IMG/VR virus record: IMGVR_UViG_2690316068_000002
Length of the DNA stretch: 64,000 bases
Source: a virus
Lineage: Duplodnaviria; Heunggongvirae; Uroviricota; Caudoviricetes
Strand: one strand, 5' to 3'
Shown: positions 2,019-49,116 of the stretch, piece after piece
How positions within the stretch are numbered: position 1 is the stretch's first letter
Layout of the letters: each line of letters opens with the position of its first letter
Position numbers and translations under genes: made by a program
Notes under the pieces: generated by a model
Databases searched by the model: none
What the model saw: only the letters and a program-made list of their open reading frames with translations
What the model was told of the DNA's origin: nothing

Positions 2019-2828
2019 TCATCCAATAGTGTACTCCGCTACAAACTTCTTAACGATCGGTGATTCTTCGTTCAATGTTAGATTTCCACCGTCTCTAACG
2101 GCAACTCCTGTCGCTGGAAATACAGCCATCATTTGCCCAGCCTGAGTTGACGCAGTGTTAAGCGGATACGGTTTTTCTGGATTGCTCATTAAAGCAATCT
2201 TAATACTATTACTTGTAGCCTTCTTTTCTGTGAGAAGGTGTCTCATGGAAATTACCGTGTAAACACTAATATCTGGACCTCCGCTAAACCAATTAAGAAG
2301 GTTTAATATCTTATCCTTTGCTTTGACAGGCGCGTTTTCGTAAGCGTCTAAGAAAATATCTGTTTCTAATCCTGCTTTATTGAAAAACGAATCATCTTTA
2401 TCACTTAAAGTAAAACGAGGACCTCTTGCAGTACGCGCTTTTTTATTTGTGTTGCTATCATTTGACTGTTGAACTTTTAATTCATCATTAACATCAACAC
2501 ACTCTTCAACCTCAATCAATCCCAATTGTTCTGGCTCGTTTTCGGCAGATTCAACACTTTCAGCGTTAATTACGTTTATAGGCTCATGCGCTAACTCCAA
2601 CTCATTTAAAGCAGAGCTGAAATCACCTGCTTTTTCTTCATTGAACAGTTCTTCGGCAACATCATCAGAACTCATGGCTACGCCAGCATCGAGGCCGAGC
2701 AGCAGATCGTCAATATCATCAGTATTTTCAACCTGTGCGGCTTTTTTTACTGGTTCATCAAGTGATTGCAACATGGCTGTCAGCTCGTCCAGATCATCAT
2801 TTGTCATTACATTTTCAACCGAACTCAT
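2019..2828 (-). CDS. hypothetical protein with strongly acidic N-terminal half
   Basis: 269 aa ORF; N-terminal ~130 aa very rich in D/E. Confidence 0.5.
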   Translation of the reverse strand: MSSVENVMTNDDLDELTAMLQSLDEPVKKAAQVENTDDIDDLLLGLDAGVAMSSDDVAEELFNEEKAGDFSSALNELELAHEPINVINAESVESAENEPEQLGLIEVEECVDVNDELKVQQSNDSNTNKKARTARGPRFTLSDKDDSFFNKAGLETDIFLDAYENAPVKAKDKILNLLNWFSGGPDISVYTVISMRHLLTEKKATSNSIKIALMSNPEKPYPLNTASTQAGQMMAVFPATGVAVRDGGNLTLNEESPIVKKFVAEYTIG

Positions 2829-18084: not shown

Positions 18085-18186
18085 GTATGCTGTCAGCGGT
18101 AATTGATAGTCTGTCAGCGGTTCACCGTATGCTGCCAACTGTTTTTGGTATTCTGTCAGCGGCAAATCAAGTATGCTGTCAGCGGT
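18085..18186. repeat. iteron array upstream of repA (5 copies)
   Basis: GTATGCTGTCAGCGGT-like 16-mers at about 18085, 18107, 18127 (degenerate), 18148, 18171. Confidence 0.8.
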
Positions 18187-18206
18187 TGAATGACAAAGGT
18201 GTCCAC

Positions 18207-19301
18207 ATGTCCACAAAAAATAAAAAAGGTAAAAATAACAAAGAAGTAGAAGATAACATCGACAACTTTGAAGAAGGTTCCCTTGAATTGTACACAGGGG
18301 AACTTGTCCCTAATAGCAACAATACAGTCCAACCAATTGCGTTGATGCGACTGGGGTTGTTCGTCCCCACGCTTAAGGGAACAAAATACAGTAAACGTAA
18401 CAAGCCAAATGAGATCGATGCTTCAAAGGAGCTTGTCCAGCTCGAAGTAGCCCGTTCTGAAGGCTATTCCGATATCAAGATAACCGGCCCTCGCCTGGAC
18501 ATGGATCATGATTTCAAAACGTGGGTGGGCGTTGTGCGTTCGCTGGCAGAATACGGCGAACCTAATGGTCGTGTCGAGTTAAGCATCACGAAATTTGCGA
18601 AGTTTTGTGGCTATCCATCGTCACAGATCCGCAAAACACTCCGCGACCGGCTTACAAACAGTCTTTTGAAGATCATGCGTACAACTCTGTCTTTCCAGAG
18701 AACGTATGAAGAAAAGAACGTCGACGGCTCTAACAAGATCTCGCTTCTGATGGTGCACCTCATCAATAGCGTGGACTACAACGAGCAGAAAGATACGGTG
18801 GTGTTCTATGCAGAACCGAAGCTGGCCGAACTATATCGCTTTGACCATAAGGTTCTTTTGCAGTTAAAGGTTATCAATAAGCTACCACGCAAAGAAACAG
18901 CACAGGCTCTGTACACCTTCATCGAAAGTCTTCCAACCAAGCCTGCGCCGGTATCGCTTGCTCGATTGCGTGCGCGACTCAATTTGAGTAGCAGGAATGT
19001 CAGCTCGCAGAATCAGACTATACGTAACGGCTTAAAAGCTCTCCAAGATTTGGGCTATCTCGAATACAGCGAGATTAAGCGTGGGCGGTCGATCTATATC
19101 CAGATTCACAGCCGCAATCCAAAACTCAAAGTCGCACCGCCAAAACCTGAAGACATCGAACCCAAAAAACCAGATGAGAAAGCTGGGGAAATTGATGCCA
19201 AACAGAACATTATCAACAAGATAACCGAACTTTCGCAGAATTTGACGCCTGAAAATATCAAGATGATTGAGATCCTTTCCAATAGTCTCAAACTGCTTTG
19301 A
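18207..19301 (+). CDS. repA: plasmid-type replication initiator (RepA-like)
   Basis: ORF 18087..19301 trimmed to ATG at 18207 (AAAGG RBS; longer ORF would run through the iterons); assignment rests on flanking iterons, DnaA box and GATC cluster, not on recognised protein motifs. Confidence 0.6.
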   Translation: MSTKNKKGKNNKEVEDNIDNFEEGSLELYTGELVPNSNNTVQPIALMRLGLFVPTLKGTKYSKRNKPNEIDASKELVQLEVARSEGYSDIKITGPRLDMDHDFKTWVGVVRSLAEYGEPNGRVELSITKFAKFCGYPSSQIRKTLRDRLTNSLLKIMRTTLSFQRTYEEKNVDGSNKISLLMVHLINSVDYNEQKDTVVFYAEPKLAELYRFDHKVLLQLKVINKLPRKETAQALYTFIESLPTKPAPVSLARLRARLNLSSRNVSSQNQTIRNGLKALQDLGYLEYSEIKRGRSIYIQIHSRNPKLKVAPPKPEDIEPKKPDEKAGEIDAKQNIINKITELSQNLTPENIKMIEILSNSLKLL

Positions 19302-27082: not shown

Positions 27083-27646
27083 ATGGCGCTTTATAACTTC
27101 ACTCTGACGCTCTCAGGCGTATCGTATGAGACGGAAGGACTGGAAGACGCGCTGTACCAAAACGGCTGTGACGATGCGCTAATTTGCGCATATGGAAACT
27201 CCGTCTATGTAGAATTTGACCGCGAAGCACAATCACTTGATGCAGCTATCGCATCTGCGGTCGACAATATTGAATCAGCCGGTATCGGTGCAATTGTTGA
27301 ATCCGTCGACTCGGCTCTTGTGGGCTTAAGCGATATCGCGGAACTGACAGACCTGTCTCGCCAGGCAGTGGCGTTGCTCAAAGACGGTAAGCGCGGAAGC
27401 GGCGACTTCCCTTGCCCTGTACAACGCATAAAAGGCCAGTCTCCTCTCTGGGATTGGGCTGATGTGGCTGAATGGCTCATGAATAACGGACGACTTAAAG
27501 AGGGCGATCAAATTGTCCAAAATGCCCGAACTTTGAGTAAATGGAATCTGGCGCTTCGAAACAGCGTCTCGAAAGATTTCAACGAAATAGAGCAAATTGC
27601 GGAGAAACTGATTAAACGCCGCAAAGATATTGCGAAATGCGCATAA
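27083..27646 (+). CDS. hypothetical protein with C-terminal helix-turn-helix, possible HicB-like antitoxin
   Basis: ORF 27047..27646; ATG at 27083 preceded by AAGGAAA; HTH-like IAELTDLSRQAVALLKDG. Confidence 0.4.
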   Translation: MALYNFTLTLSGVSYETEGLEDALYQNGCDDALICAYGNSVYVEFDREAQSLDAAIASAVDNIESAGIGAIVESVDSALVGLSDIAELTDLSRQAVALLKDGKRGSGDFPCPVQRIKGQSPLWDWADVAEWLMNNGRLKEGDQIVQNARTLSKWNLALRNSVSKDFNEIEQIAEKLIKRRKDIAKCA

Positions 27647-36195: not shown

Positions 36196-36582
36196 ATGTC
36201 TGATAACAAGATTGAATTTATAGAAAGTCGCTACGCTGCTTTTATCGCAGGGTTGATTGAATCCTCACCTATGAGCCAGGCCCAGATAGCCAAAACAATT
36301 GGGTATAAAAACGCCAACAACCTTTCTTTAATTAAAAGCGGCAAAATTCCTTTGCCTATCGATAAGGTTCGTCCGCTGGCGCTGGCACTGGGCATTGAGC
36401 CAAGTCGTCTTATGATGATGGTGCTGGAAGAACGCCAACCCGAACTCGCAGCATTTTTATACAAAGAAGGCACTGCTCCTCTTAACGAGGACGAAAAACA
36501 GGTTCTTGCTGCATATAACGAGCGATTCGGTAAAGAGAAAGGCGCATCACAAAAGGTTGTTGAGGCCATAAAGTCTCTATGA
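36196..36582 (+). CDS. helix-turn-helix (XRE-like) transcriptional regulator
   Basis: HTH-like segment SQAQIAKTIGYKNANNLSLIKSGK; 128 aa; convergent with recombinase gene. Confidence 0.6.
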   Translation: MSDNKIEFIESRYAAFIAGLIESSPMSQAQIAKTIGYKNANNLSLIKSGKIPLPIDKVRPLALALGIEPSRLMMMVLEERQPELAAFLYKEGTAPLNEDEKQVLAAYNERFGKEKGASQKVVEAIKSL

Positions 36583-37680
36583 AAAATTTACACGAATAAG
36601 CTCTGTTGATAGACGATCTCCCTTAAATTTGTGGTCAATTTCGTCTAAATCCGGTTGCTCTACGATTGATGCGATGTACGTCGAGAAACTTTCTAAGGCG
36701 TCTCGCATCTCGTCCATATAATCGTGCCGGTCGTAGACCCGATCTATCCCCTCAAGACTGTGGTTCATGATTTTACGTGATACCTCCTGGCTTATGCCTA
36801 ATGCTGGGAAGTAACTACGCGCAGTACGGCGCAAATCTCGGGGTGTAAATGGCTCAAGCTCCATCAGTTCTGGTCGTTCCAGAATACGACGTAATGCCTG
36901 GGCTATTGCCACTTTAGACATAGGAAGGTCTTTCCCGATTTTTTTATTCGAAGGCACGAGCCACTGGCTGTCTTTACCATATTCGAACAACTCTTCAATA
37001 CAAGTGCGCATTAATGAGCTTAAAGGCAGAGAATGCTCACGGGCAGATTTGTTCCTCTTGCCTTGATTCCAAACCCCACGCTTAAGATTGAACTCACTTT
37101 TTTTAGCCCGCAGTACTTCGTCAGGTCGTCTTGCGGATACAAGACATAGCCTGGCCGCCCATTTTGTACCAGCACACACATTGAAGTAGTCCCATATATT
37201 CCAGAACACCCATACCTCTGCGTCGGTCAGCTTCCGCTCGCGAGGTGTGGGCTTTGCGCCACCGGCAACTTTGTTAAGTGACATATCGTTTAACGGTGAC
37301 ACGTCTATCATCCCCTGGAAGGCGCACCAGCTAAGGAACTGCTTCATCAGAGAGAAAACGCGGCGGCCCATAACAATTTTGCCATCCAGTATTAGTGGGT
37401 TGACCAGTTGGTTCACCATGAACCTATTAATGTCACTTACTTTTACATCGGCAATGTGCGGCAAAACATGTATCAAAATACAATGAACAGCGATCTCTGG
37501 CCGACGTCTGGTTATCAGCAGAGATAAGCGAGTGAATAACATGAATGCGTCCGAGAATCTCATGTCATTGCTGACCTGGGAGATCATAACGGCCTGCATT
37601 TGAGATGCTCTTTCGAGATACTCTATCGCCTCTTTTGAGGTGTTCTCCGCAGCGCGTGCTCTGTCAAAGCTATTTTTCAT
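36577..37680 (-). CDS. tyrosine site-specific recombinase (phage integrase family)
   Basis: C-terminal catalytic domain with RPDEVL (Arg I), box II variant FTPRDLRRTA, and HSLEGIDRVYDRHDY containing candidate Tyr nucleophile. Confidence 0.8.
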   Translation of the reverse strand: MKNSFDRARAAENTSKEAIEYLERASQMQAVMISQVSNDMRFSDAFMLFTRLSLLITRRRPEIAVHCILIHVLPHIADVKVSDINRFMVNQLVNPLILDGKIVMGRRVFSLMKQFLSWCAFQGMIDVSPLNDMSLNKVAGGAKPTPRERKLTDAEVWVFWNIWDYFNVCAGTKWAARLCLVSARRPDEVLRAKKSEFNLKRGVWNQGKRNKSAREHSLPLSSLMRTCIEELFEYGKDSQWLVPSNKKIGKDLPMSKVAIAQALRRILERPELMELEPFTPRDLRRTARSYFPALGISQEVSRKIMNHSLEGIDRVYDRHDYMDEMRDALESFSTYIASIVEQPDLDEIDHKFKGDRLSTELIRVNFS

Positions 37681-37778: not shown

Positions 37779-37811
37779 AATGATTCCATACATAGTAGGT
37801 ATGGAATCATT
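37779..37811. other. candidate recombination site: perfect 13-7-13 inverted repeat
   Basis: AATGATTCCATAC-atagtag-GTATGGAATCATT, ~100 bp upstream of the recombinase gene; architecture like loxP/dif/FRT. Confidence 0.55.
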
Positions 37812-37892
37812 TAGACGTCGTTTTTTAAATTTTAAGGTAAACAGGAGTGAGTTTGGTGGGGAATAAAAAACGGCTCCTGTGAGCCGTTAAAA

Positions 37893-38141
37893 TCAGAGGG
37901 TGCTGACGTATGCAGCCAGTTCTGTGTATCCGCCAATCGGCTGGCCATCGATCAGCACCTGGGGGATAGTCTCTACCGGTTTATCAACAATTTCACTTAG
38001 TTTTTCCTTGTCGATACCGGCAGTGGTGATGTCGATGTACTCATAATCACCGTAGCCATGTCCCTTTAGTTGCTTCGCCAGCTCAACCGCACGTTTGCAG
38101 TATGAGCAGTTATCTCGTCCGTAGATAACGACTTTCATCAC
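37893..38141 (-). CDS. glutaredoxin-like protein (NrdH/Grx)
   Basis: CSYC redox motif after VVIYGRDN beta strand; 82 aa. Confidence 0.75.
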   Translation of the reverse strand: MMKVVIYGRDNCSYCKRAVELAKQLKGHGYGDYEYIDITTAGIDKEKLSEIVDKPVETIPQVLIDGQPIGGYTELAAYVSTL

Positions 38142-38263
38142 TTCACCTCGTGCAACTGCTGTTCATTAACGATGATTGTGTCAATTTCGTAGCCGTGGAT
38201 GCGTGGCTTTGGCTTCACTGCCTGACGAGCTGCGCGACGCGCCTGTTTACGTTTGTTTCCCAT
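38138..38263 (-). CDS. small basic protein (41 aa)
   Basis: ORF 38138..38323 trimmed to ATG at 38263 (AAAGGA RBS); the longer ORF would start inside the upstream palindrome; ATGA overlap with grx. Confidence 0.35.
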   Translation of the reverse strand: MGNKRKQARRAARQAVKPKPRIHGYEIDTIIVNEQQLHEVK

Positions 38264-38310
38264 ATAGAGTCCTTTCAAGTGAGTAAGTGTCGTGACTATA
38301 GCTAAAATGA

Positions 38311-38330
38311 ATAGGTGAGTCATTACCTAT
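38311..38330. promoter_or_regulatory. promoter-proximal palindrome ATAGGTGAGTCATTACCTAT
   Basis: Member of recurrent palindrome family. Confidence 0.4.
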
Positions 38331-38469
38331 TTAATGTGTTTGGTTACTAAGCAGAAATGGCTTTGTGAGGTTGACACATTAGAAACGGCAAGACAGCTTT
38401 AAACTAGCTGAAATGGTATGGTCGATTAGGTATCATTCAGTTTCAAAATTAACCAAAGACACTGATAAA

Positions 38470-39702
38470 ATGCCTGTTTTGTTAATCCTCATACTTGGGA
38501 CAGTGATGATTATTTTCTGGGATACCGTCAAGGAAAACGTAGAGGTCATAGGTACACTTGCCACTTCACTTGCATTTTTCGCCACAGCATGGGCCGCTTA
38601 CGAGGCAAGGCATAGTGCAAAGGCAGCAATGAGGGCCACTAGGCTGACGGCAGCTTCACTCCTTGAAATGAAAAAAGCCTCTTTTAAGGAATGGTACGGC
38701 ATATTACTTGAACAGCATAATAGATTACTTGAGGATGTTAACAAGACCTTGCAGGATGATAGGGAACTTAATGCAAAACTGGGAACGAATCTCATCAAGG
38801 CTATTTATTACCATGTAACCAAAAACTCCGTTTACATTAAATATATTAACCACATAGTTTTAATTCTTGATTATTTAGATAAAGACTTCTATTCGCCGTC
38901 ATCAGCCGATTATGAAAAGAGAGCTTACATAGAACAGCTGCGCAACAGCATTAGTCCTAATGTAAGCCTGCTGATAGCTACATTCGGCCTTAATATTGAC
39001 ACTAATAAAACCTATGACGCAAAGAGGCTTTACAGCCTGCTAAGCAAGTATAACTTCTTCGAAGGCCAACTTTTTTTTGAAGAAGCAATATCGAAAGTTC
39101 ATTATTTGGACTCTTATGCTGCTGTGATATTTGATAACGAATACCGAAAAGATGTAGAGTTTTATGTTGAAGAAATGGTTCGAGGTCGTGAGACCCCTAA
39201 AATCGATTCAAGATATCGTCATTTAAGGGCTACGTTCGCAATTCTGTGGTCTTACAACAACCCCTGCCGACAACATTTGCTTCAAAGATTTAATGACCTA
39301 CCTATGCATATGCGAAACAGCATTGAGCTGAGGATGGAAAATGCAGCCGATAAAGTAGCTGAGTTCAACTCTTTGTTACTTGGTTTTATAGGCTGGGAGC
39401 TTAGAATCGCAGGTAATAAAGTGAGGGTGATCAAGGATGAAAAACATTTAAAGAGGCTAATAAAACTCAACGATAAGTATCCAATTCCCCCCCGAGAGAA
39501 AGGTATTCTGTTAACCAATGGTTTCACCAATAGATTCGCTGATGAGATTAAAAATAGTCTGTCTATGTATAAGTTAGAAAATGCCTATTTAGCACTCAAC
39601 TCTAATCAACACAAAGAAAAGGTGATTGATGAAATTGTTGTTGAAGTTGAGAAAATTGTCGATAAATTTAAAGCAGAACTTGATTCTTTGGATTTCAACT
39701 AA
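38470..39702 (+). CDS. low-GC membrane-anchored protein of unknown function
   Basis: ORF 38413..39702; two N-terminal TM helices; K/N/I/Y-rich composition unlike neighbours; plus strand; followed by terminator. Confidence 0.55.
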   Translation: MPVLLILILGTVMIIFWDTVKENVEVIGTLATSLAFFATAWAAYEARHSAKAAMRATRLTAASLLEMKKASFKEWYGILLEQHNRLLEDVNKTLQDDRELNAKLGTNLIKAIYYHVTKNSVYIKYINHIVLILDYLDKDFYSPSSADYEKRAYIEQLRNSISPNVSLLIATFGLNIDTNKTYDAKRLYSLLSKYNFFEGQLFFEEAISKVHYLDSYAAVIFDNEYRKDVEFYVEEMVRGRETPKIDSRYRHLRATFAILWSYNNPCRQHLLQRFNDLPMHMRNSIELRMENAADKVAEFNSLLLGFIGWELRIAGNKVRVIKDEKHLKRLIKLNDKYPIPPREKGILLTNGFTNRFADEIKNSLSMYKLENAYLALNSNQHKEKVIDEIVVEVEKIVDKFKAELDSLDFN

Positions 39703-39707
39703 GCAAA

Positions 39708-39737
39708 AAGGGGCCGAAGCCCCTTTAATTATTTGCG
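39708..39737 (+). terminator. rho-independent terminator
   Basis: AAAGGGGC-cgaa-GCCCCTTT followed by AATTATTT. Confidence 0.6.
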
Positions 39738-39881
39738 CTGAAAAAAGTGTTGCTAGGATGTTAGCAAGCTATGGTTAAGAACGTCTGCCGCAATTGTCTA
39801 TCACAGCGTTGAGCGGTCTGGTTTATGTTAGCGGAGTCTTAATCTGGGTGATTAAAAGGCCAAACCGCTCAACGCTGTGTC

Positions 39882-39968
39882 TGGCGGAGAGTAATGGAAT
39901 CGAACCATCATCGCTTGCGCAATGGGACGGTTTTCAAGACCGCTTGAGCACCATGCTCCCTACTCTCC
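39882..39968 (-). tRNA. tRNA-Ser (anticodon UGA), type II with long variable arm
   Basis: Minus-strand GGAGAGT...CTTGAAA...GGTTCGATTCC...ACTCTCCGCCA; 7-bp acceptor stem, T-loop TTCGATT, anticodon loop CUUGAAA; D-arm atypical. Confidence 0.6.
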
Positions 39969-40181
39969 AGTTGTTGTGGTGCCGGGGGCTTCCCGGTGTC
40001 CTTTGGCTGGTTATCCACCGTGGACGGAGCCAATAGTCATCACAAAGGATCAATATAACCATTTCCCCGCGTGCGCTTAGCCGCATTCACCACAACGAAA
40101 AGAGCACTGTATGACGTTTGCACGGACTTACGCTTAAAACAGGGCAGTCTCGGCGGTTCTCAATGCTCTTTCCTGTTGTGT

Positions 40182-40257
40182 TGGTGCCGGTTAACGGATT
40201 CGAACCGCCGACCATTCGCTTACAAGGCGACTGCTCTACCAACTGAGCTAAACCGGC
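40182..40257 (-). tRNA. tRNA-Thr (anticodon UGU)
   Basis: GCCGGTTTAGCTCAGTTGGTAGAGCAGTCGCCTTGTAAGCGAATGGTCGGCGGTTCGAATCCGTTAACCGGCACCA; perfect acceptor stem; canonical D and T loops. Confidence 0.8.
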
Positions 40258-40261
40258 AATT

Positions 40262-40348
40262 TGGTGGGGAGTGATGGAGTCGAACCACCCGAGTCGCAAT
40301 GACAGTAGATTTACAGTCTACACCGCTACCTCTACGGACTAACTCCCC
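40262..40348 (-). tRNA. tRNA-Tyr (anticodon GUA), long variable arm
   Basis: GGGGAGT...GTAGACTGTAAATCTAC...GGTTCGACTCC...ACTCCCCACCA; anticodon loop CUGUAAA. Confidence 0.7.
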
Positions 40349-40353
40349 TAAAT

Positions 40354-40428
40354 TGGCGATGGTGGGTGGATTCGAACCACCGACCAGTTGGTTAACAGCC
40401 AACTGCTCTACCGCTGAGCTACACCATC
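40354..40428 (-). tRNA. tRNA-Asn (anticodon GUU)
   Basis: GATGGTGTAGCTCAGCGGTAGAGCAGTTGGCTGTTAACCAACTGGTCGGTGGTTCGAATCCACCCACCATCGCCA; perfect 7-bp acceptor stem. Confidence 0.8.
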
Positions 40429-41206
40429 AATTCGGCACTGCCAGTATTTATTACTCAACAGTGCCAATCGCGACGGTTTAGTTTCTGCCAGGAAACGCAC
40501 CGCTACTTGCACTTTTCGTTAGTGCCAGACGCTTTCGACTTCGCTCAATAGTAGAAGGCAAAATCTTTAAGTAGATGATGTTTCTGAGGACAGCACCTAC
40601 TTTGTAATTTATACAATGTGATGTATGGAATCATTTGTTGTGAAAACAGGCACCAATGGCAACAGTGGTTAAACCTACACAACAATCCTGTCTTCACAAC
40701 GTTGAGGCCACTACTCCGATTGAATGTTTGCCCAACATGTTACATATCAACGCTCGCCGGTATCTCTGTGAATAGAACCTTAGAATTGATAAAAATGTAA
40801 TGGCCTCAACGTTGTGTGCTGGCTAACCATACCAGCCGGGCTACGTCGCCGCTTTTTAACCCAGTATAAACGACATAATTGAACAAAATGACGTAACAGG
40901 ATGGGCGGTCAGTGGCTAAGAATCCGGGAGTCATATGGAGTTGAAAATATACCAACCGCCCATTCTGTTACTTCATCGGAGGGAACATGAATGTTCCCTC
41001 CTGCGTTCTGCAATCACACTCGCTCAGTGTGTCCCATTTCGGTAACGAGGCTGGAAACTGACCTCGCTGGTGTTTGGCTTATTAGGCTACTGCCAGATAG
41101 ACTTCTTCGTTTGCACTTGTATTTAAGTTCAAACAGTCGCGTCTCAACGAAAACAAAGTCATCTTATACATAAAAGATAAGTAAGTAAATACTTATTATT
41201 GTATTT

Positions 41207-48312: not shown

Positions 48313-49116
48313 CTAGTATCCAAGAAAATCAGTATCTTTCTCTAATCTTATTTTTTCCAGCTTATACGATCCTGGAGGGCACTTCATTTTGTAGATTTCG
48401 ATACCTGAATCAAATAGTTGATGAACATAATTTTGAAGTTGACTGCTAGCCTTACAACCTATTGTTATTTCCTTAATTAAGGATTTATCAAATAATTTCA
48501 CGCCACAATTCTCGGTTACGATTCTAACCTCCTCTTCATATTCCCAGACATCGCTTTTATTTAGGCAAAGAGCCGCTGCAATCTCTTTATCTGAGTCGGT
48601 AAAAAAATTTACAACCGGAACATCAGAGGAATATTTGACCTCACCGCGAACAAAAAAACCATCATCAAACGCATTTATAAAACCATCATCAAATCCGATG
48701 CAAAAACCAGAGTGAGAATGCGCATAATGCGACCACATAAGATAATTATCTGGTCTTTTTGTCAAACAAATAACTCCCCGACACTGCAGAAAAGTTGTTC
48801 TAATCATATAGTTATCAAAACTGCGACTATGTTCTGTTTGACTCAATAACCAGCGTTCAAATTCATCATTGTGATGATTAGGCCAAAGCTCAAAAAATCT
48901 TTTCTTAATGGCGTCTATATCAGCATCATAATCAAAATTAACTTTAAACTCGGCAGGATCGTTGAAATCATTCGGACGAGTTGCTCGAATTTTCCCATCT
49001 TCTAAGTAATACTTTAAATACTTTATTGTGTCTTCCGGGACGCTACTTCCAACATATTTGTAAAGCATAAATATACCTTTTAAGAGAAGGCGTCTAATCA
49101 CGCCTTCTCTTATCAA
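48313..49116 (-). CDS. hypothetical protein, DUF2971-like pattern, low GC
   Basis: 267 aa; YLKYYL...NDFNDPAEF...W-HYA-H-G-C-GF resembles DUF2971 as I recall it; AT-rich codon usage. Confidence 0.45.
   Translation of the reverse strand: MIREGVIRRLLLKGIFMLYKYVGSSVPEDTIKYLKYYLEDGKIRATRPNDFNDPAEFKVNFDYDADIDAIKKRFFELWPNHHNDEFERWLLSQTEHSRSFDNYMIRTTFLQCRGVICLTKRPDNYLMWSHYAHSHSGFCIGFDDGFINAFDDGFFVRGEVKYSSDVPVVNFFTDSDKEIAAALCLNKSDVWEYEEEVRIVTENCGVKLFDKSLIKEITIGCKASSQLQNYVHQLFDSGIEIYKMKCPPGSYKLEKIRLEKDTDFLGY

Follow-up and report, generated by a model that had tools for sequence, protein, structure and literature searches.

The 64,000-nucleotide stretch analyzed here (IMG/VR record IMGVR_UViG_2690316068_000002; hereafter the window) is, by its region matches, an SSU5-like phage-plasmid of Escherichia coli. 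This report concerns one gene on its plus strand, between grxA and a tRNA cluster, which encodes a protein of 410 residues and is named 'hypothetical protein' in all records examined. Judged from sequence comparisons, the protein is a diverged relative of the abortive infection (Abi) proteins AbiC and AbiP that standard annotation has missed, and the gene is a horizontally mobile cargo gene ('moron') residing in a hotspot of SSU5-type phage-plasmids. Since it is both mobile cargo and an AbiC/AbiP relative, its most likely role would be to guard the host cell from other phages, and we give a probability of roughly 60% to the reading that it is a membrane-anchored, single-gene antiphage defense of the AbiC/AbiP type. 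How systems of this type stop phage has lacked an explanation since the early 1990s. AbiC and AbiP, which belong to the earliest abortive infection genes described, are still without an assigned domain, structure, or mechanism (PMC13064643; bioRxiv 10.1101/2024.10.26.620412). A first-pass annotation of the window, made from the sequence alone, had listed abortive infection among three possible roles of the gene, and it is this role that gains specific support from the remote homology to AbiC/AbiP (PF16872), from which we infer an antiphage function.

The relationship is not visible when the protein itself is searched. The query gave no PF16872 match in Pfam even at E <= 10 (gathering threshold 22 bits), no PADLOC family at E <= 1, neither AbiC nor AbiP, and no match in NCBIfam; the first-pass annotation had likewise recognized no motif. 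None of the close homologs (P0001-P0064) carries a precomputed Pfam match. The query is matched by phrog_18168 (PHROGs v4, unknown function; E = 1e-173, residues 13-410), which is its own family in (pro)phage genomes, near full length and without functional annotation or any link to AbiC/AbiP; that link is added by the present analysis. It appears with more distant relatives. P0065, a full-length homolog with 39% identity, passes the 22-bit gathering score of PF16872 (putAbiC, 'putative phage abortive infection protein') with 25.9 bits. A family profile built from 21 members retrieves only 93 proteins from 1.84 billion representatives, and PF16872 is matched by 59 of the 72 that were taken as near full length (best E = 1.4e-11). 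The query aligns by BLASTP with P0092 over residues 3-198 (E = 5e-26), and P0092 in turn reaches 36.4 bits on PF16872 and matches the PADLOC models AbiC (1.3e-6) and, weakly, AbiP (2e-4). P0102 matches PADLOC AbiC at 8.6e-6, and P0160 gives a weak match to PADLOC AbiP at 7.5e-4.

Alignment with hhalign agrees with these searches. The family profile (A1) aligns over residues 67-198 with enterobacterial 'putative phage abortive infection proteins' at a probability of 94.6% (E = 6.8e-8), the targets being proteins of 246-278 residues, several of which bear the NCBI name 'putative phage abortive infection protein'. By eye, the query family and the enterobacterial PF16872 proteins have the motifs F..LLEQHN..L, Y...L..ID..FY, and K.Y...R in common. 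The AbiC-like protein of lactococcal p275A (L006), which is listed as similar to AbiC (PMC6458302), served as positive control and matches PADLOC AbiC at 4e-133 and PF16872 with 32 bits; the wide family profile (A2) aligns with it at a probability of 75% (E = 2.4e-5), query residues 121-179 against 191-250. Because of the P0065/P0092, hhalign, and p275A alignments we conclude at the sequence level that the N-terminal half of the query (the transmembrane helices plus residues ~67-200) is homologous to the AbiC/AbiP (PF16872) superfamily, the query not being AbiC proper. The terms 'putAbiC' and 'PF16872' were not found in the literature searched. AbiH, PrrC, PD-T4-3, PD-T7-5, restriction-modification and other systems are named in a large survey of the SSU5 group of phage-plasmids with DefenseFinder, and AbiC is not among them.

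The proposed domain architecture of the protein is given in Table 1. Two N-terminal transmembrane (TM) helices had been proposed in the first-pass annotation; the first is clear by Kyte-Doolittle (KD) hydrophobicity, and the second is a probable one only. The first keeps its hydrophobicity while its residues vary in homologs of 37%-39% identity. A subgroup of the family (P0066-P0071) is without it and has the second hydrophobic segment only, thus resembling the single-TM AbiP. The N-terminal TM anchor by which the AbiC/AbiP group is recognized is therefore represented in the query by residues 1-17 and, probably, 26-44. Directly after the second segment follows a highly conserved basic juxtamembrane helix (residues 45-75), and within the close family conservation is highest at residues 26-75 (majority fraction 0.84). 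The short loop at residues 18-25 contains 1 K/R versus 3 D/E, and residues 45-75 contain 7 K/R versus 3 D/E; because of this charge distribution and the positive-inside rule the C-terminal domain is placed in the cytoplasm, and the large domain, ~365 of the 410 residues, is accordingly predicted to be cytoplasmic. Residues 45-120 are basic (isoelectric point 9.6), and the juxtamembrane region is compatible with nucleic-acid binding, as reported for AbiP.

Conservation has two peaks, at residues 26-75 and 121-200, and its minimum at residues 201-410. The conserved alignment columns of the core include the LLEQHN motif (79-84), an invariant Y125, D137/Y141, and FF196-197. In the wide family the majority-residue fraction is 0.54 in the core versus 0.19-0.23 in the C-terminal domain. 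No long protein among the 1.84 billion representatives matched the family profile through the C-terminal half alone, and this domain therefore appears to be confined to the family; we consider it a candidate specificity or sensor domain. The AlphaFold2 (AF2) model of the query (predicted local distance difference test score, pLDDT, 80; predicted template modeling score, pTM, 0.71) is all-alpha with small beta-hairpins at residues 310-320 and 347-356. Its confidence is low at residues 1-50, as expected for a membrane hairpin modeled alone, and mostly 76-97 in the C-terminal domain, where two blocks dip to 59-66. A Foldseek search of the model against PDB and BFVD returned nothing at E <= 0.001. 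The alpha-pore-forming toxins ClyA and MakB appeared at E = 0.4-0.9 and were rejected as evidence, and the best match of a PDB profile sequence search, TRAPPC3 (E = 0.011), is at chance level.

That the gene is mobile is evident from the comparison of related elements. Across relatives the backbone homology stops at 38131-38331 to the left of the gene and restarts at 39703-39705 to its right. The flank that begins at the stop codon was matched by 209 plasmids in a set of 5,426 complete E. coli genomes, and the gene is present in only 17 of these, 5 at ~98%, 3 at ~84.5%, and 9 at ~74% nucleotide identity. Elsewhere the same slot is occupied by a 431-residue paralog (L002:2793-4088; 31% identical, E = 1e-57) together with a gene for 184 residues (5 genomes), by an unrelated protein of 298 residues (11 genomes), or, in E. 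coli pECAZ162_2 (L004:2498-3286, minus strand), by a protein of 262 residues together with the same 184-residue gene; a Gp49-family gene alone also occurs there, and some relatives have no cargo. The N-terminal ~125 residues of the 262-residue protein match PADLOC PDC-M68A (6e-25), CBASS-type endonuclease effectors, and Shedu SduA (1e-16), and these matches to PDC-M68A/Shedu nuclease models support the view that the slot is a defense hotspot. In the phage-plasmids of Klebsiella, where phoH, gp49, and grxA form an intact block, the slot separates this block from the tRNAs and holds either a 74%-identical homolog or a homolog of the unrelated ~300-residue family.

The cassette is also found in other kinds of elements. 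A 59%-identical homolog lies in a P2-like prophage (L011), on the opposite strand between baseplate and tail-completion genes; a 46%-identical one in a Cedecea lambdoid prophage (L009), again on the opposite strand, between replication and nin-region genes; and a 61%-identical one in a Pectobacterium chromosome (L007), ~6.5 kb from an AAA_15/AAA_21 ATPase gene. The ~70-nt leader is 78%-81% identical in these three loci, and the sequence further upstream is unrelated. Similar hairpins lie 3' of the homologs in L007, L009, L011, and L013, and the idea that the terminator is purely a backbone element was rejected on this ground. Since leader and hairpin accompany the gene elsewhere, the mobile unit consists of leader/promoter, open reading frame (ORF), and terminator, as in a classical moron, and the context comparison revealed no partner (antitoxin) gene traveling with it. 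In a tblastn search of PLSDB, 139 plasmids were matched, from Escherichia, Klebsiella, Enterobacter, Salmonella, Pantoea, and Citrobacter. No tblastn match was found among the 50,697 deposited phage genomes of INPHARED, which include sequenced SSU5-like phages; the family has its own PHROG and yet seems confined to plasmid-state or integrated prophages.

Composition points in the same direction. The guanine-plus-cytosine (GC) content of the gene is 38.4%, versus a mean of 46.1% for the window (standard deviation 2.8% over stretches of the same length), which places it at the 0.16th percentile of such stretches, and GC at third codon positions (GC3) is 0.39. K, N, I, and Y together make up 27.8% of the residues, the highest value among 41 long ORFs (mean of the other 40, 20.6%, standard deviation 2.7%), in line with the K/N/I/Y-rich composition named in the first-pass annotation, though leucine (12.2%) is the commonest residue of the protein. 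Across the contexts compared the gene has 32%-38% GC within loci of 42%-55% GC, and the copies in the prophages and the chromosome have 32%-33% GC within loci of 46%-55% GC. The first-pass annotation had suggested horizontal acquisition, a view that an ordinary composition together with conservation in all relatives would have spoken against; the composition is strongly deviant, few relatives carry the gene and the others have different cargo in the slot, and leader and ORF recur at low GC in two other types of prophage, P2-like and lambdoid, and on a chromosome. Variable presence, alternative unrelated cargo, own transcription signals, and deviating composition thus mark the gene as hotspot cargo.

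The reading that we prefer builds on what is reported for AbiC and AbiP. Their shared extra-membrane domain can be superimposed and is preceded by two TM helices in AbiC and by a single one in AbiP; AbiC lowers the production of the major capsid protein with DNA replication unaffected, and AbiP needs its TM anchor and sequence-independent RNA/ssDNA-binding, arrests replication, and disturbs the switch-off of early transcripts (PMC13064643). In view of these data and of the basic juxtamembrane region, a membrane-anchored block after injection is favored. The hairpin of two hydrophobic helices would anchor the protein in the inner membrane with the remainder in the cytoplasm. The shared effector part would be the stretch of residues ~26-200, made up of the second TM helix, the basic helix next to the membrane, and the core with LLEQHN and Y125, and the fast-diverging C-terminal ~210 residues would set which phages are recognized. 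Expressed from the resident prophage, the protein may interfere with a step that follows DNA injection by a superinfecting phage: by analogy with AbiC the production of late proteins could be blocked, and by analogy with AbiP the early-to-late switch of transcription and replication, through nucleic-acid binding at the membrane. The outcome would be protection of the lysogen population and of the phage-plasmid. The other slot occupants that match defense models (PDC-M68A, Shedu-like nuclease) provide a context consistent with such a role. A bolder version of this reading, which we offer only tentatively and hold to be somewhat improbable as a whole, is that the clade constitutes a distinct enterobacterial single-gene antiphage system, in which the membrane module shared with AbiC/AbiP is joined to a sensor domain at the C terminus that is new, diversifies rapidly, and determines phage specificity; as part of the same doubtful joint claim, this one system would move among SSU5-type phage-plasmids and P2-like and lambdoid prophages.

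Several observations weigh against an AbiC/AbiP-type defense. The query itself is unmatched by every Pfam, PADLOC, and NCBIfam model, and its connection with the true lactococcal AbiC is an indirect one of modest strength (60 residues aligned at a probability of 75%). The hydrophobicity of the second TM segment is marginal (KD 1.44), the core of the query follows directly after the TM helices while that of AbiC lies ~120 residues further downstream, and the searches of PDB and BFVD produced no structural analog hinting at an activity. The mechanism of AbiC is unknown, and AbiC and AbiP appear to be mechanistically different (PMC13064643). Homology is also no guarantee of phenotype, because in Lactococcus an 'AbiC-like' protein that shares 38% identity with AbiC did not confer resistance to the phages tested (PMC11381338).

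A membrane anchor would suit strict superinfection exclusion (Sie) as well, that is, a prophage inner-membrane protein that blocks DNA entry or receptor use at the envelope, with no post-injection abortion or cell death. Sie-type genes typically sit in temperate elements as morons of this sort, and the present gene is an opposite-strand moron in three kinds of such elements. The 'Abi' label is, moreover, historical, cell death is unestablished for AbiC/AbiP, and the review speaks of 'Abi-like' systems (PMC13064643). We nevertheless consider exclusion unlikely. The only functional data on the relatives point to a block later than DNA entry, AbiC acting on capsid protein production and AbiP on replication and the transcript switch (PMC13064643); the ~365 residues beyond the anchor are predicted to be cytoplasmic, not periplasmic; and the searches of PHROGs and Pfam showed no similarity to known Sie families.

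A service to the phage-plasmid itself, such as membrane-tethered maintenance or post-segregational killing, modulation of lysis and lysogeny, or anti-defense, appears still less probable. The gene is carried on an extrachromosomal prophage, its PHROG family is of unknown function, and anti-defense was one of the options in the first-pass annotation. However, 92% of related E. coli phage-plasmids lack the gene, which is thus not needed for maintenance or lysis, and the same cassette is found as cargo in a chromosome and in P2-like and lambdoid prophages that are integrated, settings in which plasmid addiction is meaningless. Nor does an antitoxin partner accompany it, and its absence from the 50,697 phage genomes would be unexpected for an anti-defense gene useful in lytic growth. 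The homologs, finally, are Abi-family proteins.

The ORF is a real gene. The longest reading frame, 38413..39702, would give 429 residues, but its ATG at 38413 (-57) was rejected as the start because it is out of frame or blocked by stop codons in the homologs from three other contexts; the start at 38470 (MPVLL...) is common to all homologs compared, and the plus-strand ORF of ~410 residues called by the first-pass annotation is borne out. The ratio of nonsynonymous to synonymous substitution rates (dN/dS) is 0.13-0.32 against homologs of 48%-73% identity, counted only where synonymous sites are unsaturated and with synonymous sites near saturation in these comparisons, and the ORF is therefore regarded as being under purifying selection. 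Intact copies number >100, with full-length intact homologs in at least eight genera. That the gene is a decaying or functionless remnant of acquired AT-rich DNA, an ORF without selected function, as the missing domain matches in direct searches and the patchy distribution might suggest, is highly improbable, contradicted as it is by this selection and conservation across genera, by the confident AF2 model, and by the conserved leader.

Its transcription signals are its own. A consensus scan of the leader matched a candidate sigma-70 promoter, CTGAAA (38408-38413) and TATCAT (38431-38436) with a 17-nt spacer, and the TATCAT element occurs in all 5 leader sequences compared. The leader has no significant RNA structure (folding z = -0.77). 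The terminator proposed in the first-pass annotation was found as a hairpin that begins four bases past the stop codon, with a U-rich tail on either strand. Its energy is -15 kcal/mol on the plus strand and -17.6 kcal/mol on the minus strand, where a UUCG loop and a UUUUUGCUU tail make it the better terminator version. Being good on both strands, it can therefore terminate the cargo gene and the converging tRNA transcription alike. The hairpin persists in phage-plasmids whose slot is filled differently or empty, and may be the right-hand recombination boundary for cargo exchange.

Set beside the known systems, AbiC (pTN20; PADLOC AbiC; PF16872) is like the query a single-gene, low-GC, mobile-element-borne system in which a helical domain comes after two N-terminal TM helices. 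The two have a core segment in common, and neither has a recognizable enzymatic domain or structural analog; AbiC and AbiP themselves are likewise reported to have no significant structural match (PMC13064643). Unlike AbiC, the query stays below the PADLOC AbiC and PF16872 thresholds, has an extra clade-specific C-terminal domain of ~210 residues, and resides on a prophage or phage-plasmid in a Gram-negative enterobacterium, whereas AbiC is found on a dairy plasmid. AbiP, grouped with AbiC as 'AbiC/P' (PMC13064643), is membrane-anchored like the query, both it and the query family have the AbiC-related extra-membrane domain, and AbiP and the single-segment subgroup of the family have one hydrophobic segment each; the query differs in having no direct match to the AbiP model and in its length, 410 residues versus 223 positions in the PADLOC model. 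The enterobacterial PF16872 proteins, short ones of 246-286 residues from Kosakonia, Enterobacter, and Citrobacter and longer ones of 430-470 residues (P0092, P0089, P0102), share with the query the N-terminal module, the host family, and the LLEQHN and Y...L..ID..FY...K.Y...R segments. Their identity to the query is only 22%-33%, for many over the N-terminal half only, and the short forms are without the C-terminal domain. No experimentally characterized enterobacterial PF16872 protein was found in the literature searched. What is new is, by these comparisons, a diverged AbiC/AbiP-type module, its core adjoining the TM helices, joined to a C-terminal domain specific to the clade, and not a categorically new system.

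The analysis thus links to AbiC/AbiP an unannotated protein family that circulates as a compact cassette in three types of temperate elements of clinically relevant Enterobacteriaceae. If active, the gene would add a defense gene that PADLOC does not detect and whose close homologs have no Pfam match, and would mark the phoH/grxA-tRNA slot of SSU5-like phage-plasmids as a defense hotspot. Since the gene lives in E. coli, it could then give a tractable model for the AbiC/AbiP mechanism. If inactive, it remains an ordinary accessory moron.

Table 1. Positions in the window of the gene, its parts, and the adjoining features
Feature	Position	Strand	Basis
Coding sequence, 410 residues; membrane-anchored AbiC/AbiP-like (putAbiC superfamily) protein, as predicted	38470..39702	+	
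Predicted TM helix 1, residues 1-17, MPVLLILILGTVMIIFW	38470..38520	+	KD 19-residue window maximum 2.25
Probable TM helix 2, residues 26-44, VIGTLATSLAFFATAWAAY	38545..38601	+	Uncharged 19-residue stretch, KD 1.44
putAbiC-homologous core, residues ~67-200	38668..39069	+	hhalign, BLASTP
Variable C-terminal domain, residues 201-410; model helical, plus two small beta-hairpins	39070..39699	+	
Conserved non-coding leader/promoter region, travels with the gene	38398..38469	+	Leader comparison
Bidirectional intrinsic-terminator hairpin, stem GGGGC/GCCCC extended by AAA/TTT	39707-39726	both	Folding
Variable slot of the SSU5-like backbone as filled here	38332..39702	.	blastn of window vs L002-L005
phoH 5' remnant, left of the cargo	38160..38286 (approximate)	-	L004 equivalent annotated PhoH fragment
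Integrase (tyrosine recombinase)	36577..37680	-	
grxA	37893..38141	-	
Four tRNAs (Ser, Thr, Tyr, Asn)	39882-40428	-	

The host element encodes a Rep3-type replication initiator at 18087-19301. Around the gene the order is CobT-like gene, helix-turn-helix regulator, tyrosine recombinase, and grxA on the minus strand, the target gene on the plus strand, and the tRNAs Ser, Thr, Tyr, and Asn and DNA ligase on the minus strand; with integrase, grxA, and all four tRNAs on the minus strand, the orientation opposite to the neighbors given in the first-pass annotation is correct. A megablast search with positions 37800-40500 matched the Escherichia phages CMS-2020a and Cyrano and Klebsiella phage-plasmids, in the flanks only. 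A 100%-identical protein, named 'hypothetical protein', is encoded on four non-mobilizable Escherichia plasmids of ~110 kb (3 from E. coli, 1 from E. fergusonii), for example CP099286.1.

To the left of the cargo, the E. coli lineage has lost phoH and gp49. Between grxA and the cargo the window keeps just a piece from the 5' end of phoH, 84% identical in nucleotides to the corresponding part of the intact gene in Klebsiella phage pJN2-26. An ORF of 61 residues at 38138-38323 (minus strand) overlaps this remnant and is unannotated in CP099286. The slot also receives a third cargo family, represented by L003:4107-5003 (plus strand, 298 residues) in E. coli and L012:2755-3669 (plus strand, 304 residues) in Klebsiella, which are 40% identical. 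The family has no Pfam match, and PADLOC gave only a chance-level match to Csn2 for L012 (E = 0.0046); by eye, the two copies have a conserved RH(T/I)IVHN stretch (Rx4H, HEPN-like). Homology of the query to this ~300-residue cargo was rejected (BLASTP E = 0.055, hhalign probability 0.2%). To the right, an Rfam scan around the gene gave just the tRNAs and sub-threshold matches to small RNAs. One of these, to STnc100 at 39946-40114 on the minus strand (41.3 bits versus a gathering score of 47, E = 8e-7), starts at the 5' end of tRNA-Ser, with an overlap of ~23 nt, and reaches into the spacer ahead of tRNA-Thr.

Three further ORFs were noticed elsewhere in the window. A 251-residue ORF at 48313-49068 (minus strand), at 35.6% the poorest in GC among the long ORFs of the window, matches Pfam DUF2971 (2e-10) and PADLOC PDC-S31 (1e-40); because of these matches and its low GC it is likely a second defense-type moron. 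A 187-residue ORF at 27083-27646 (plus strand) matches PADLOC PDC-M06B at 1.3e-32 and has no Pfam match. A 269-residue ORF at 2019-2828 (minus strand; GC 40.1%, GC3 0.33), with no match in Pfam or PADLOC, is a possible accessory gene.

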